Assembly (NCBI GenBank): GCA_964374105.1 | Contig: CAYJXI010000003.1 | Span: 13,336-77,335, forward strand | Source of the DNA: an uncultured Planctomycetales bacterium | GTDB lineage: Bacteria; Omnitrophota; Gorgyraeia; Zapsychrales; JANLHA01 | DNA: 64,000 bases | Direction of reading: 5' to 3' | In this document: piece by piece, positions 26,406 through 41,002 of the stretch | How positions within the stretch are numbered: position 1 is the stretch's first letter | Layout: each line of letters opens with the position of its first letter | Notes under the pieces: generated by a model | Database searches by the model: none | What the model was told of the DNA's origin: nothing | The model's input: the letters and a program-made list of their open reading frames with translations, nothing else | Translations under genes and position numbers: made by a program

Positions 26406-26506
26406 GATTTATGACAGAATCAAGGAAATTTATTGCTTAAGTAACCTTTAAGTCCCTCAACTAGTTTAAGGACACGTCACTCTTTTGTAAATAATTTTAA
26501 AGCTAG

Positions 26507-26580
26507 TGGCGGCGAGTGGATTTAAACCACTGACCAATCGGGTATGAGCCGAGTGCTCTATCAGGCTGAGCTACGCCGCC
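26507..26580 (-). tRNA. tRNA with anticodon CAU (elongator Met or lysidine-modified Ile2).
   Basis: Hand-folded cloverleaf: GGCGGCG acceptor stem, CUCAUAC anticodon loop, G1:C72 rules out the initiator. CCA is not encoded. The D-loop (AGCCUGAUA) lacks G18G19 and the T-loop (UUUAAAU) lacks C56. Confidence 0.7.
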
Positions 26581-26751: not shown

Positions 26752-27051
26752 TTAGAAGAAAATGAGATAAAGGAGCACTAATATCATGCATAGAGAAAGA
26801 ACATAAAAATCATTATAATAAAAGAAATCCTGGGTCCTTTCTTTGAACGTATAAGGGAATTGATCTGTTTCATTAATCACGGTCCCTGTTTCCCGGAGAT
26901 TAAGAACTTCCGATTTTTTAAATCTCAAAAATTGGTTAGCAATTCGATAGGCTGTCAGTTTTTGAGACTCAATGAGGTCCATGACTTTTTTTTCTGAGAT
27001 GCCTAGCAGTTGAGCCGTTTCTCTGACGGAAATATATTGGTTTGTAGTCAT
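26752..27051 (-). CDS. Excisionase/MerR-type HTH DNA-binding protein with a C-terminal membrane anchor.
   Basis: ISVRETAQLLGISEKKVMDLIESQKLTAYRI matches HTH_17. The C-terminal FYVLSLCMILVLLYLIFF is a TM helix. Confidence 0.5.
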   Translation of the reverse strand: MTTNQYISVRETAQLLGISEKKVMDLIESQKLTAYRIANQFLRFKKSEVLNLRETGTVINETDQFPYTFKERTQDFFYYNDFYVLSLCMILVLLYLIFF

Positions 27052-27171: not shown

Positions 27172-27687
27172 CTATTTAGTTTGTCCAGTTGATGCCCAGG
27201 TATCAATTTGGGAACGTTCGAAGGTCCAGGAATCCCCATTTTTAATGGCCGGAATTTTGCCGGAATCGGCTAACTGGAGAATCGAGGCCGAGTCGATTTC
27301 TAAATATTTGGCCACCTCCTCCAGATTCAAGACATCTTCCACCATCTGACATCTCCCCTGGAAAATAGCTCCTTCTACGATGTTGAGTTTAGGGGTGGAA
27401 ATATTTCCAGTTAAAACCCCTGTGGGCATGAGGACTAGCATTTTCTTTGCAATAATATCACCCCGTAGTTTACCAGCAATAATGATGTTCTCTCCGGTAA
27501 TATGGGCTTCCACAAAAGCGGAATTTCCAATGGTTAATGTTCCTCTGATTTCCAGGGTCCCGTGAAAATTTCCATTGATCTTAAGATTTACAGGGTCTTT
27601 AAAGGAGAGAGTCCCCTGCATTTGAGCATTGATTTCAATACTTTTTTCCGCAGGCTCGATTGGCTCCTTTTTTTGTCTTAATTGCAT
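27172..27687 (-). CDS. Bactofilin-domain protein fused to a C-terminal excisionase-type HTH DNA-binding domain.
   Basis: The middle part has the beta-helix repeats GNFHGTLEIRGTLTIGNSAFVEAHITGENIIIAGKLRGDIIAKKMLVLMPTGVLTGNISTPKLNIVEGAIFQG typical of bactofilin DUF583. The C-terminal LNLEEVAKYLEIDSASILQLADSGKIPAIKNGDSWTF matches HTH_17. Confidence 0.6.
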   Translation of the reverse strand: MQLRQKKEPIEPAEKSIEINAQMQGTLSFKDPVNLKINGNFHGTLEIRGTLTIGNSAFVEAHITGENIIIAGKLRGDIIAKKMLVLMPTGVLTGNISTPKLNIVEGAIFQGRCQMVEDVLNLEEVAKYLEIDSASILQLADSGKIPAIKNGDSWTFERSQIDTWASTGQTK

Positions 27688-27817
27688 ATGTCACCTCCTT
27701 TCACTGTAAAAGTTTCTATGATTAATTAATAACCTGAGATCTAAGTTTTAAATGAAATATTCGTTTAGTGGATTTATTGATCAGACAACTCGGATTAAAT
27801 TTCCAAATTATCAATCG

Positions 27818-39103: not shown

Positions 39104-41002
39104 CTATGATTTGTTGATCCTGATTTTTTCCAGGGAGGCCCTGAGGTGTTCAATGGAATGCTTCAAGAGACGACAATAGAGATCAAACCCCACCGTATTG
39201 ATATAACCACTCTGTTCTTTCCCTAAGAGATTCCCTGCTCCCCGGATTTGCAGATCTTCAAAGGCAATTTGAAACCCCGCCCCCAATTCACTGTATTTTT
39301 CCAAAGTTTTTAGTCTTGACTTTGCCAATTTGGATAATCCCAAGTGAGGTGGCACCATAAAATAAGCGTAAGCCTGATTACTAAATCTCCCGACTCGTCC
39401 CCGCAATTGATGAAGTTCAGCTAACCCAAAGCGGTGAGCATCATTGATGATTAAGGTGTTGGCATTGGGGATATCGATCCCTGATCCAATGATGGTTGTG
39501 CAAACCAAGACGTCAATTTCATTTTTTAAAAATTTCAACATAATAATTTCCAGCTCGCGCGAAGGTAACTGGCCATGAGCACAAGCCATTCTACCATCAG
39601 GAATAAGACGTTGTAATATTTTAGCAATTTTATCAATATCTTCAACTCGGTTGTGTAAAAAAAAAACCTGCCCTCTTCTCTTAAGTTCTCGGTCAACGGA
39701 CTGCTGAATAAGATCCTCATCAAATTCAACGATATGAGTCACCACCGGAATGCGATTTTGCGGGGGAGTTGAGATGACAGACATATCCTTGGCTCCGGAA
39801 AGGGCCAGGTAAAGAGTCCGTGGGATAGGGGTGGCGGTCATGGTCAGGACATCTACGAGAAGTTTAAAGTGTTTCAACTTCTCTTTGGCACGGACTCCAA
39901 AGCGCTGTTCTTCGTCAATGACTATAAGACCTAAGTCTTTAAAGTCAATATCCTTGGATAACAGCCGATGAGTTCCAATCACAACATCCACGGTCCCCTT
40001 TTTGAGCCCTTGGATGATTTTCTTTTGTTCCTCTTGACTGCGGAAACGGCTGAGCATGGCAATTTGTACGGGAAAATCTTTCATGCGGTTAGTGAAGTTA
40101 TAAAAATGCTGCTCGGCAAGAATTGTCGTTGGTACAAGGACTGCAACTTGTTTATGGTCCATGATCGTCTTAAAGATGGCTCTTAAGGCTACCTCGGTCT
40201 TGCCAAAACCCACATCTCCACAAAGGAGCCGATCCATGGGATGATCGGATTCCATATCGACTTTGACTTCTTGGGTGGATCGGATCTGATCCGGGGTTTC
40301 CTTAAAAGGGAATGTCTTCTCAAACTCAGCCTGCCAAGGGGTATCTTTAGAAAATTGAAACCCTTTTAAACTTGTTCGCAGGCTCTGTAAATGTAAAAGT
40401 TCCGCGGCAAGCCTTTGCAACTTTTTTTGAATTTGCGCACAAATCCGCCTCCATTCTTGCGATCCTAATTTATAAAGACGAGGAGGTTTTTTGGTAAAAC
40501 TCACATACTTCTGCACCAAGTGAATGTCATGTTCGGGAACATAGAGTTTATCTCCATCCTTGTATTCAATGACCAAATGATCCCGTTCTTTATTTTGAAT
40601 CGAGAAACGTTTGATCCCTAGAAATTTTCCAATGCCATGAGTGTTATGAACAACATAATCGCCCTTTTTTATATCGATAAAATTTTTCAGTGGAGTTTGG
40701 AGGCTAAAAATAGTTGAATCTTGGGATTTGAGGGGAAGGATCAAAACAATCTTGTGTTGCCAGATCGCCTTGCCGGATCGCATATTAAAGCTGGCGATGG
40801 AACGGATTTTATCTTCATCTAAGGCAATGCGGATGGGATTATCGAAATTGATTGGGAAAATATCAATGACTTCGCCTCGCTGGCAGAAATCTCCGACTTT
40901 TAAAACCGATCTGACCCTTTGGTATTGGTAGGCAAGGAGATTGTTGGTAATTTCATCGATGTCGATGCTCTGATCAACATAGAATTTTAAAGACTCAAAC
41001 AT
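39104..41002 (-). CDS. mfd: Transcription-repair coupling factor Mfd, compact form lacking most of the N-terminal UvrB-homology module.
   Basis: CarD/TRCF RNAP-interaction domain (KKGDYVVHNTHGIGKF...KLYVP), SF2 helicase motifs (GDVGFGKTEVALRA, DEEQRFG, the TRG region) and the C-terminal TRCF domain (GAGFQIAFEDLQIRGAGNLLGKEQSG). Only about 110 aa precede the CarD-like domain, versus about 470 aa in E. coli. Confidence 0.8.
   Translation of the reverse strand: MFESLKFYVDQSIDIDEITNNLLAYQYQRVRSVLKVGDFCQRGEVIDIFPINFDNPIRIALDEDKIRSIASFNMRSGKAIWQHKIVLILPLKSQDSTIFSLQTPLKNFIDIKKGDYVVHNTHGIGKFLGIKRFSIQNKERDHLVIEYKDGDKLYVPEHDIHLVQKYVSFTKKPPRLYKLGSQEWRRICAQIQKKLQRLAAELLHLQSLRTSLKGFQFSKDTPWQAEFEKTFPFKETPDQIRSTQEVKVDMESDHPMDRLLCGDVGFGKTEVALRAIFKTIMDHKQVAVLVPTTILAEQHFYNFTNRMKDFPVQIAMLSRFRSQEEQKKIIQGLKKGTVDVVIGTHRLLSKDIDFKDLGLIVIDEEQRFGVRAKEKLKHFKLLVDVLTMTATPIPRTLYLALSGAKDMSVISTPPQNRIPVVTHIVEFDEDLIQQSVDRELKRRGQVFFLHNRVEDIDKIAKILQRLIPDGRMACAHGQLPSRELEIIMLKFLKNEIDVLVCTTIIGSGIDIPNANTLIINDAHRFGLAELHQLRGRVGRFSNQAYAYFMVPPHLGLSKLAKSRLKTLEKYSELGAGFQIAFEDLQIRGAGNLLGKEQSGYINTVGFDLYCRLLKHSIEHLRASLEKIRINKS

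Follow-up and report, generated by a model that had tools for sequence, protein, structure and literature searches.

A gene pair in a 64-kb stretch of DNA from an uncultured bacterium (contig CAYJXI010000003.1; the whole of this stretch is called the window below) suggests a hitherto undescribed scaffold linking membrane and chromosome in the phylum Omnitrophota. The first gene, at 27172..27687 on the minus strand, encodes a 171-residue fusion of a bactofilin with a winged helix-turn-helix (wHTH) domain, which we name BacHTH; the second, directly downstream at 26752..27051 on the same strand, encodes a 99-residue tail-anchored wHTH protein, here called the partner. We would describe the system as a conserved Omnitrophota 'bactofilin-wHTH + tail-anchored wHTH' module, whose most likely role, proposed tentatively and by analogy with known nucleoid tethers, would be to couple a membrane-bound cytoskeleton to the nucleoid. 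The wHTH fused to the bactofilin itself looks poorly suited to grip DNA.

Both domains of the fusion are readily recognised. Pfam Bactofilin (PF04519, cut-off 27.9) matches residues 17–114 with 80.4 bits (E 1.2e-22) over profile positions 3–98 of 98, and HTH_17 (PF12728, cut-off 27) matches residues 120–166 with 39.3 bits (E 8e-10), while the NCBIfam excisionase-family domain model TIGR01764 'excise' scores 31.8 bits, above its cut-off of 28.8. An AlphaFold2 model (mean predicted local distance difference test score (pLDDT) 90.1; predicted template-modelling score (pTM) 0.66), calculated from an alignment of 24 diverse family members, has a β-helix at residues 15–115, with strand pLDDT values of 94–98, followed by a β-α-α-β-β-α domain at residues 119–166. 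In a Foldseek search of the PDB, the N-terminal part of this model finds the bactofilins 6RIB (template-modelling score normalised to target 0.78) and 2N3D as best matches, both at probability 1.00, and the C-terminal part finds the wHTH domains of RdfS, BldC, Xis and RacA (root-mean-square deviation 1.5–2.9 Å) and of pSK1 Par (8CSH). No single solved PDB chain covers both parts. On profile and model evidence, BacHTH is thus confirmed as a true bactofilin to which an excisionase/MerR-type wHTH is covalently joined, in agreement with a preliminary description of this DNA that had proposed a bactofilin core fused to an HTH_17-like domain; the peptide quoted there, LNLEEVAKYLEIDSASILQLADSGKIPAIKNGDSWTF, corresponds to residues 120–156. 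A hexapeptide-repeat acetyltransferase β-helix, the alternative identity which that description had itself raised, can be set aside, as no such Pfam family matches BacHTH even at E ≤ 1.

The architecture is neither a one-off nor an assembly artefact, to judge from homologous sequences, since the best 120 database relatives of BacHTH all carry both Pfam domains, at lengths of 168–190 residues and 70–80% identity. These relatives are annotated after one half or the other, as 'polymer-forming cytoskeletal protein' by NCBI and as 'excisionase family DNA binding protein' by JGI. The start codon of BacHTH lies 6 nucleotides (nt) from a Shine-Dalgarno sequence, GGAGG (27694..27698, minus strand), and finds support in the orthologues, 76 of 80 having a Shine-Dalgarno-like motif 5′ of the aligned Met1.

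A scan of GTDB with one genome per species revealed a BacHTH relative in 334 species representatives, phylum-wide in Omnitrophota. The best 80 of these 334 are Omnitrophota metagenome-assembled genomes (MAGs), including one complete 3.36-Mb chromosome, and the named ones among the best 120 database relatives come from Candidatus Omnitrophota. When 1.84 billion 50%-identity representatives were searched exhaustively with HMMER, about 20 further clusters spanning both domains emerged, down to ~29% identity, and the named clusters belong to Omnitrophota or the 'PVC group'. No bactofilin-wHTH fusion outside Omnitrophota was found among the database relatives, the HMMER clusters or the species representatives of the GTDB scan.

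The gene order in the window is gatA/gatB, an S41 peptidase (CtpA-like), Polysacc_deac_2, tsaD, mgtC, BacHTH, partner, tRNA-Met(CAT), DoxX, SNase, tilS, ftsH, folP and cdaA, with further housekeeping genes flanking the region on both sides, and the same order around BacHTH recurs in unrelated metagenomes and MAGs. Across 89 loci, which were chosen by their similarity to BacHTH, mean identity to the window protein is 69% for BacHTH, compared with 70% for FtsH, 67% for CtpA, 60% for TsaD and 44% for TilS. On this comparison of sequences BacHTH is a core chromosomal gene of Omnitrophota, about as conserved as FtsH, and does not lie in a mobile element. Plasmid tethering, one of the roles put forward in the preliminary description, finds no footing in a context that is core chromosomal across the phylum (gatCAB-ctpA-tsaD ... 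tilS-ftsH-folP-cdaA). The individual neighbours vary, with MgtC present in 47 and the deacetylase in 52 of the 89 loci, and only the two-gene pair is constant.

The β-helix core (residues 15–115; 27343..27645, minus strand) is the best-conserved part of the protein, with a mean identity of 79% across 80 orthologues, the set to which the residue counts below refer. Phe109 (codon 27361..27363, minus strand) aligns in phmmer comparisons with F130 of BacA from C. crescentus (2N3D) and F105 of TtBac from T. thermophilus (6RIA), and it is invariant (80/80). F130 belongs to the C-terminal interface through which BacA polymerises, where this Phe is conserved, and its replacement by Arg (F130R) leaves BacA unable to polymerise (PMC12448750). 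Judged by this pattern of conservation, the BacHTH core should polymerise end to end and independently of nucleotide.

At the other end of the protein, residues 1–8 (MQLRQKKE; 27664..27687, minus strand) form a possible membrane-targeting sequence (MTS). The family motif here is M-A-[LF]-[RN]-x-[RK]-[RKE], position 3 being hydrophobic in all 80 orthologues and position 6 basic in 77. The bactofilin MTS consensus is MFSKKKK, in which M1, the hydrophobic residue 2, K4 and K7 are important (PMC12448750); the BacHTH N-terminus is akin to it in character and not identical, carrying its hydrophobic residue at position 3. Membrane binding through this peptide is plausible, and because of the resemblance to MFSKKKK the premise that the fusion protein has no membrane contact of its own is uncertain.

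The partner gene, recognised by HTH_17 at 36.1 bits, lies directly downstream of BacHTH in 88 of the 89 loci (tblastn), and the lone exception is at a contig edge. The spacing of the two genes varies between -35 and +120 nt and is most often -4, an ATGA overlap, which indicates that the two genes form a single, translationally coupled operon. The partner keeps this position in clades with BacHTH identities of only 53%, 49% and 37%, and since in the latter two clades the wider neighbourhood differs while the pair is kept, the conserved unit is the gene pair. The partner family comprises 264 clusters, from Omnitrophota only.

Its members share a layout of wHTH, variable linker, aromatic-acidic motif (DFFY[FY]NDFY) and C-terminal hydrophobic helix. 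In the protein of the window, the juxtamembrane motif DFFYYNDFY (residues 75–83, in a helix at 69–79) and the transmembrane helix (residues 81–98) together occupy 26758..26847 on the minus strand; AlphaFold2 predicts helices at 69–79 and 81–98 with pLDDT values of 81–95, and hydrophobic 19-residue windows extend across residues 76–99. From sequence and model, we take the partner to be a tail-anchored membrane protein with a cytoplasmic wHTH. Residues D75, F76, Y78, N80, D81 and Y83 are invariant in the partner alignment (A4; window 26758-26829, minus strand), and the juxtamembrane motif is as conserved as the wHTH (72% versus 70% identity), a pattern suggestive of a surface for specific interactions at the membrane interface.

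The wHTH fused to the bactofilin (residues 119–166; 27190..27333, minus strand) is HTH_17/excisionase/MerR-like and net acidic, and follows the last β-strand of the core after a linker of 4 residues in 72 of the 80 orthologues. Its predicted secondary structure (helices at 122–129, 133–142 and 158–166, strands at 148–150 and 153–157) is that of a winged-helix fold, and in a profile search of the PDB its best sequence match is RacA (E 3e-5), followed by BldC and Pukovnik Xis. In RacA, K15 and R19 of the recognition helix contact bases, and R30 and Y36 of the wing contact phosphates; DNA binding is weakened by K15A and is reduced by R19A until no dissociation constant can be determined (PMC4914108). 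When these residues are mapped through the RacA profile-search alignment, the wing contacts are seen to be kept in BacHTH, with K/R149 (R30-equivalent) in 78 of 80 orthologues and W154 (Y36-equivalent) in all 80; R158 is also conserved. Through this wing the fused wHTH may bind the DNA backbone weakly, an effect that polymer valency would multiply.

The wHTH of the partner (residues 6–55; 26887..27036, minus strand) is homologous to the fused one at the profile level (hhalign probability 95%), while a direct BLASTP comparison of the two domains gave no match. It is net basic (mean charge +2.2), with conserved basic residues at K21/K22, R36, R43 and K45, of which R43 and K45 are invariant together with R10, and it carries K/R at the K15- and R30-equivalents. 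Its best PDB match is a DNA-binding protein, the excisionase Gp37 of phage Pukovnik. These features would make the partner's wHTH a better candidate for DNA binding than the fused one. Simple charge compensation between the two domains was considered and rejected: over 80 pairs their charges correlate weakly and in the opposite direction (Spearman rho +0.24, p 0.03), a correlation that is confounded by phylogeny and uninformative.

We infer from these patterns four activities, namely polymerisation, membrane binding, DNA binding and an interaction between BacHTH and its partner, and combine them in a model in which a membrane-associated bactofilin polymer and a tail-anchored wHTH partner tether or organise the nucleoid. 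This model is the one we favour, as a possibility and not yet as a probable account. The bactofilin core would self-assemble end to end into nucleotide-independent polymers, laid on the cytoplasmic membrane by the N-terminal peptide, the transmembrane helix of the partner, or both; in C. crescentus, a membrane-anchored client, PbpC, can indeed replace the MTS (PMC12448750). Each subunit of the polymer would display one RacA/BldC/Xis-type wHTH on its 4-residue linker. The partner, with its homologous but basic wHTH and its transmembrane tail anchor, would supply most of the DNA contacts, and the acidic fused wHTH would either pair with the wHTH of the partner or bind DNA weakly by means of its conserved wing and the multivalency of the polymer. 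Precedents for such contacts exist, as wHTH-wHTH contacts through the wing and α1 organise RacA on DNA (PMC4914108) and BldC forms head-to-tail multimers (PMC5859096). Together, the two proteins would build a multivalent array on the membrane, by which DNA, be it the nucleoid generally or specific chromosomal sites, is kept at the envelope.

By architectural analogy, everything that this class of tether needs (a MerR-type wHTH, a multimeriser and a membrane or pole anchor) is present, split over two proteins and made of different components. One close parallel is RacA-DivIVA, in which a MerR-type wHTH is joined to a self-associating domain and tied to a membrane-bound scaffold (PMC4914108), and RacA is also the best PDB sequence match of the fused domain. 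However, RacA has a coiled-coil oligomeriser behind a flexible linker of 40–60 residues and needs DivIVA, whereas BacHTH has a β-helix and a 4-residue linker, and the K15 and R19 of RacA are replaced by P/A/S and E/D. RocS of S. pneumoniae, RicO of S. aureus and pSK1 Par bridge DNA and membrane; they begin with a MerR-type wHTH at the N-terminus, have a region for oligomerisation and are anchored in the membrane at the C-terminus (PMC11500499; 10.64898/2026.03.06.710092). RocS is built from a wHTH, a coiled coil and an amphipathic helix, and has to oligomerise in order to bind the membrane (PMC11500499); RicO anchors origins with a DNA-binding domain and an amphipathic helix (10.64898/2026.03.06.710092). 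The partner has the same wHTH-linker-membrane anchor layout, and pSK1 Par is among the fold matches of the fused domain, but RocS and RicO carry amphipathic helix and coiled coil in one polypeptide, whereas here a true transmembrane helix is found and the bactofilin multimeriser resides on a separate protein. Neither DUF536 nor a coiled coil is detectable in the BacHTH/partner module. The likeness to RacA, RocS and RicO is partial, because key DNA-contact residues are not conserved.

Among bactofilins, BacNOP of M. xanthus shows that such a scaffold can be linked to the chromosome and its segregation machinery, through PadC and ParB/ParA (PMC5703909). There, the ParB-like adaptor PadC is a separate protein on the long C-terminal tail of BacP, whereas here the wHTH is fused and no ParB-like protein is encoded nearby. 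BacHTH resembles canonical bactofilins such as BacA and TtBac in a core that matches the profile end to end, in its 6RIB/2N3D fold, in the interface Phe and in a short basic-hydrophobic N-terminus; it differs from them in that its C-terminal tail is a folded wHTH after a 4-residue linker instead of being disordered, and in its N-terminal motif, MA[LF][RN]x[RK] as against MFSKKKK. BldC and the excisionases Xis and RdfS share the small wHTH fold and form cooperative multimers on DNA (PMC5859096, PMC11963761), an arrangement that a polymer displaying wHTH domains would mimic, but they are small, stand-alone basic proteins, whereas the fused wHTH has a net charge of about -5 and no association with a recombinase.

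A divergent branch of the family adds circumstantial support, by analogy with the BacNOP system, to the tether model. The most divergent fusion clade (~29% identity, Omnitrophica WOR_2) is without a partner combining HTH and transmembrane helix, and in three of five loci examined the fusion lies two genes downstream of a ParA/MipZ-like ATPase (L093 1112-4567; L096 866-4317; L097 869-4321). This ATPase has 465 residues and a C-terminal AMPK1_CBM (glycogen-binding) domain, and two unannotated proteins of ~217–273 residues are encoded between it and the fusion. As separate observations, L093 starts with a gene matching the actin-like Volactin family, and in L094, a further locus of this clade, the fusion has a two-component/sigma-54 regulator cluster as its neighbour, while a gene for a gas-vesicle protein lies farther along. 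A protein of 231 residues that surfaced as a relative of the fused wHTH (P0149) consists of three tandem HTH_17-like repeats (MNADEVARYVGLS...FNKQEVDIWKQQRE, x3).

Several observations weigh against the tether model, most of them concerning the fused wHTH. Its mean net charge is -4.7 (range -7 to -1, n=80), and net acidity is shared by 22 of 24 diverse family members; counted by hand over the aligned stretch, the charge is about -5, compared with about -1 in RacA, +6 in BldC and +4 in Pukovnik Xis. The K15-equivalent is P, S, A, D, N or G and never K/R (P in 45 of 80), and the R19-equivalent is acidic in 64 of 80 orthologues (E in 57, D in 7). Within the domain, conservation is lowest in the recognition helix, where identity is 49%, whereas the wing reaches 69% and the bactofilin core 79%; this would be unusual for a sequence-specific reader of DNA. 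Because the domain is net acidic, is without the basic residues of K15 and R19, and conserves its recognition helix least, direct canonical DNA binding by it is doubtful and canonical sequence-specific reading unlikely. The wHTH of the partner also has D at the R19-equivalent. In the predicted structure, the 4-residue linker sets the fused wHTH beside the C-terminal tail-to-tail interface, so that assembly might be limited to dimers or the filament altered, and the pTM of only 0.66 leaves the orientation of the two domains loosely fixed. On the DNA side, a k-mer survey of the 150 nt upstream of the operon in 80 loci returned no widely shared motif, only coding-derived or AT-rich k-mers; the analysis brought up no candidate binding sites, and nothing in the window provides a link to ParB/parS or SMC.

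The acidity of the fused wHTH and its lack of basic recognition-helix residues could also mean that it binds no DNA. On that account, which we regard as rather unlikely, BacHTH would be a morphogenetic scaffold, a membrane-bound landmark for envelope or division factors, and its acidic, degenerate wHTH would be a protein adaptor that docks the partner or other clients. The MerR-like fold is known to serve in protein binding, the CbpM-CbpA complex 3UCS being among the Foldseek matches, and bactofilin clients are typically bitopic membrane proteins bound by their cytoplasmic tails (PbpC; PMC12448750). A neighbourhood rich in envelope genes (S41 peptidase (CtpA-like), Polysacc_deac_2, MgtC) would also fit such a landmark, but these are separate housekeeping genes whose presence varies, as the counts for MgtC and the deacetylase given above illustrate. 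The adaptor explanation further has to account for a partner that keeps a basic wHTH (K21/K22, R36, R43, K45) resembling DNA-binding excisionases, and for the conservation of K/R149, W154 and R158 in the wing of the fused domain itself.

An unlikely alternative draws on BacR (YhbD, DUF4004), a MerR-like HTH protein of B. subtilis that is bound to the bactofilins BacE/BacF at the membrane and encoded in the same operon (PMC13649987). One or both wHTH domains would then be transcription factors, whose capture or release by polymer and membrane couples gene expression to the state of envelope or cytoskeleton. BacE/BacF keep BacR at the membrane, and in this bound state BacR no longer binds DNA (PMC13649987). 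BldC, structurally close to the fused wHTH, regulates transcription (PMC5859096), and the acidic domain could serve the basic partner as a decoy. BacR, however, is a separate, soluble DUF4004 regulator in a non-covalent, switch-like association, whereas a covalent fusion and a permanent transmembrane anchor give no obvious means of release, there being no protease site or signal-sensing domain. Membership of the BacR/YhbD class itself was rejected, as neither BacHTH nor the partner matches DUF4004 at E ≤ 1. The upstream region of the operon, surveyed above in 80 orthologous loci, likewise holds no conserved operator-like motif, and conservation at the level of FtsH exceeds what is usual for a local regulator.

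The preliminary description had gone furthest with the fusion alone, proposing a one-polypeptide, self-sufficient filament that anchors chromosome or plasmid DNA by its own wHTH. Part of this holds: the architecture does combine a polymer domain with a RacA-like wHTH, RacA being the closest solved sequence relative, and the interface Phe is invariant. Moreover, the RacA wHTH is itself slightly acidic in the hand count above, so that net charge alone is no bar to DNA binding, and the most divergent clade lacks the tail-anchored partner. The self-sufficiency is what fails, since a partner follows in 88 of 89 loci, the fused wHTH is acidic and carries neither base-contacting residue, and the gene belongs to the chromosomal core genome, with no plasmid context. 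We therefore regard a stand-alone anchor as very unlikely.

That the HTH_17 genes are remnants of a mobile element or defence system, as excisionases or MADS-type HTH proteins near a tRNA integration site, is almost certainly wrong: the 'excisionase family' wording of the HTH_17 and TIGR01764 models and of the JGI annotation, weak mad1 and PHROG excisionase matches and a tRNA-Met(CAT) just downstream would all point that way, but the PADLOC and PHROG matches are weak and concern the HTH fold only, no integrase or other element genes are present, and synteny is constant across hundreds of species, the tRNA being part of it in 38 of the 50 related loci that were examined. Assignment to the excisionase/recombination directionality factor class is effectively refuted by the lack of an integrase and by core synteny across 89 loci and 334 species representatives. 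The MADS defence protein MAD1 (NF047737) was likewise rejected, with 43 bits against a cut-off of 80 and a PADLOC mad1 score of 18.5 bits, and there are no methyltransferase or MADS genes nearby.

Other features of the locus can be summarised briefly. An Rfam scan of the window finds two tRNAs only. The tRNA-Met(CAT) gene just downstream of the operon is at 26506-26580, on the minus strand like the operon itself. Gene content past this tRNA varies, with DoxX in the window and GH16, TPR or DUF6485 proteins elsewhere; tilS lies ~1.3 kb beyond it. The enzyme encoded by tilS modifies the CAT-anticodon tRNA-Ile2, and because of its proximity the tRNA at 26506-26580 could be tRNA-Ile2 instead of an elongator tRNA-Met. 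Sigma-70 promoter and terminator scans around the operon gave nothing above shuffled expectation, and the window contains no bactofilin or HTH_17 paralogue besides BacHTH and the partner. The strand bias of genes over the 64 kb is very strong: of 47 open reading frames (ORFs) of at least 150 residues, 45 are on the minus strand and two on the plus strand, and one of these two overlaps queH. GC content is ~0.35–0.43, and GC skew does not switch within the window. An Mfd/TRCF-like ORF of 632 residues (39104-41002, minus strand) begins at the UvrB-interaction domain and continues with CarD_TRCF_RID, DEAD and Helicase_C, with no TRCF C-terminal domain at E ≤ 1e-5, and by this domain content may be a shortened or split Mfd. 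Many MAG records named 'uncultured Planctomycetales bacterium' (L010, L013, L015, L016 and others) contain an Omnitrophota-type locus, with 70–77% protein identity and identical synteny, and the 'Planctomycetales' label in such records is probably a placeholder and not a true assignment.

To our knowledge, bactofilins are widespread scaffolds that recruit clients only via disordered tails or separate adaptors. In the searchable full-text literature, we found no description of a bactofilin-wHTH fusion, nor of a bactofilin with a DNA-binding-type domain; a recent survey that took in 14,337 bactofilins concentrated on the N-terminal motifs of five phyla other than Omnitrophota (PMC12448750). With BacHTH, a domain of nucleic-acid-binding type would for the first time be seen as an integral part of the bactofilin cytoskeleton, and the interest of the fusion lies in its phylum-wide conservation, its obligate partner and the experimental tractability of two small proteins. 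If the acidic wHTH is a protein adaptor, it would provide a clear case of a DNA-binding fold repurposed. Omnitrophota are ultra-small and mostly uncultured, with few cultivated representatives. It is decidedly unlikely, though worth stating, that the module is a minimal, nucleotide-independent device for chromosome anchoring or segregation, core to cell organisation in the phylum, in which the regular wHTH array of the filament and the partner pin defined chromosomal regions to the membrane with no need for ParB-type adaptors or coiled coils. If DNA tethering by the module is true, it would provide a compact model system for nucleoid-membrane coupling that is easy to reconstitute, as well as a first handle on cell organisation in Omnitrophota.

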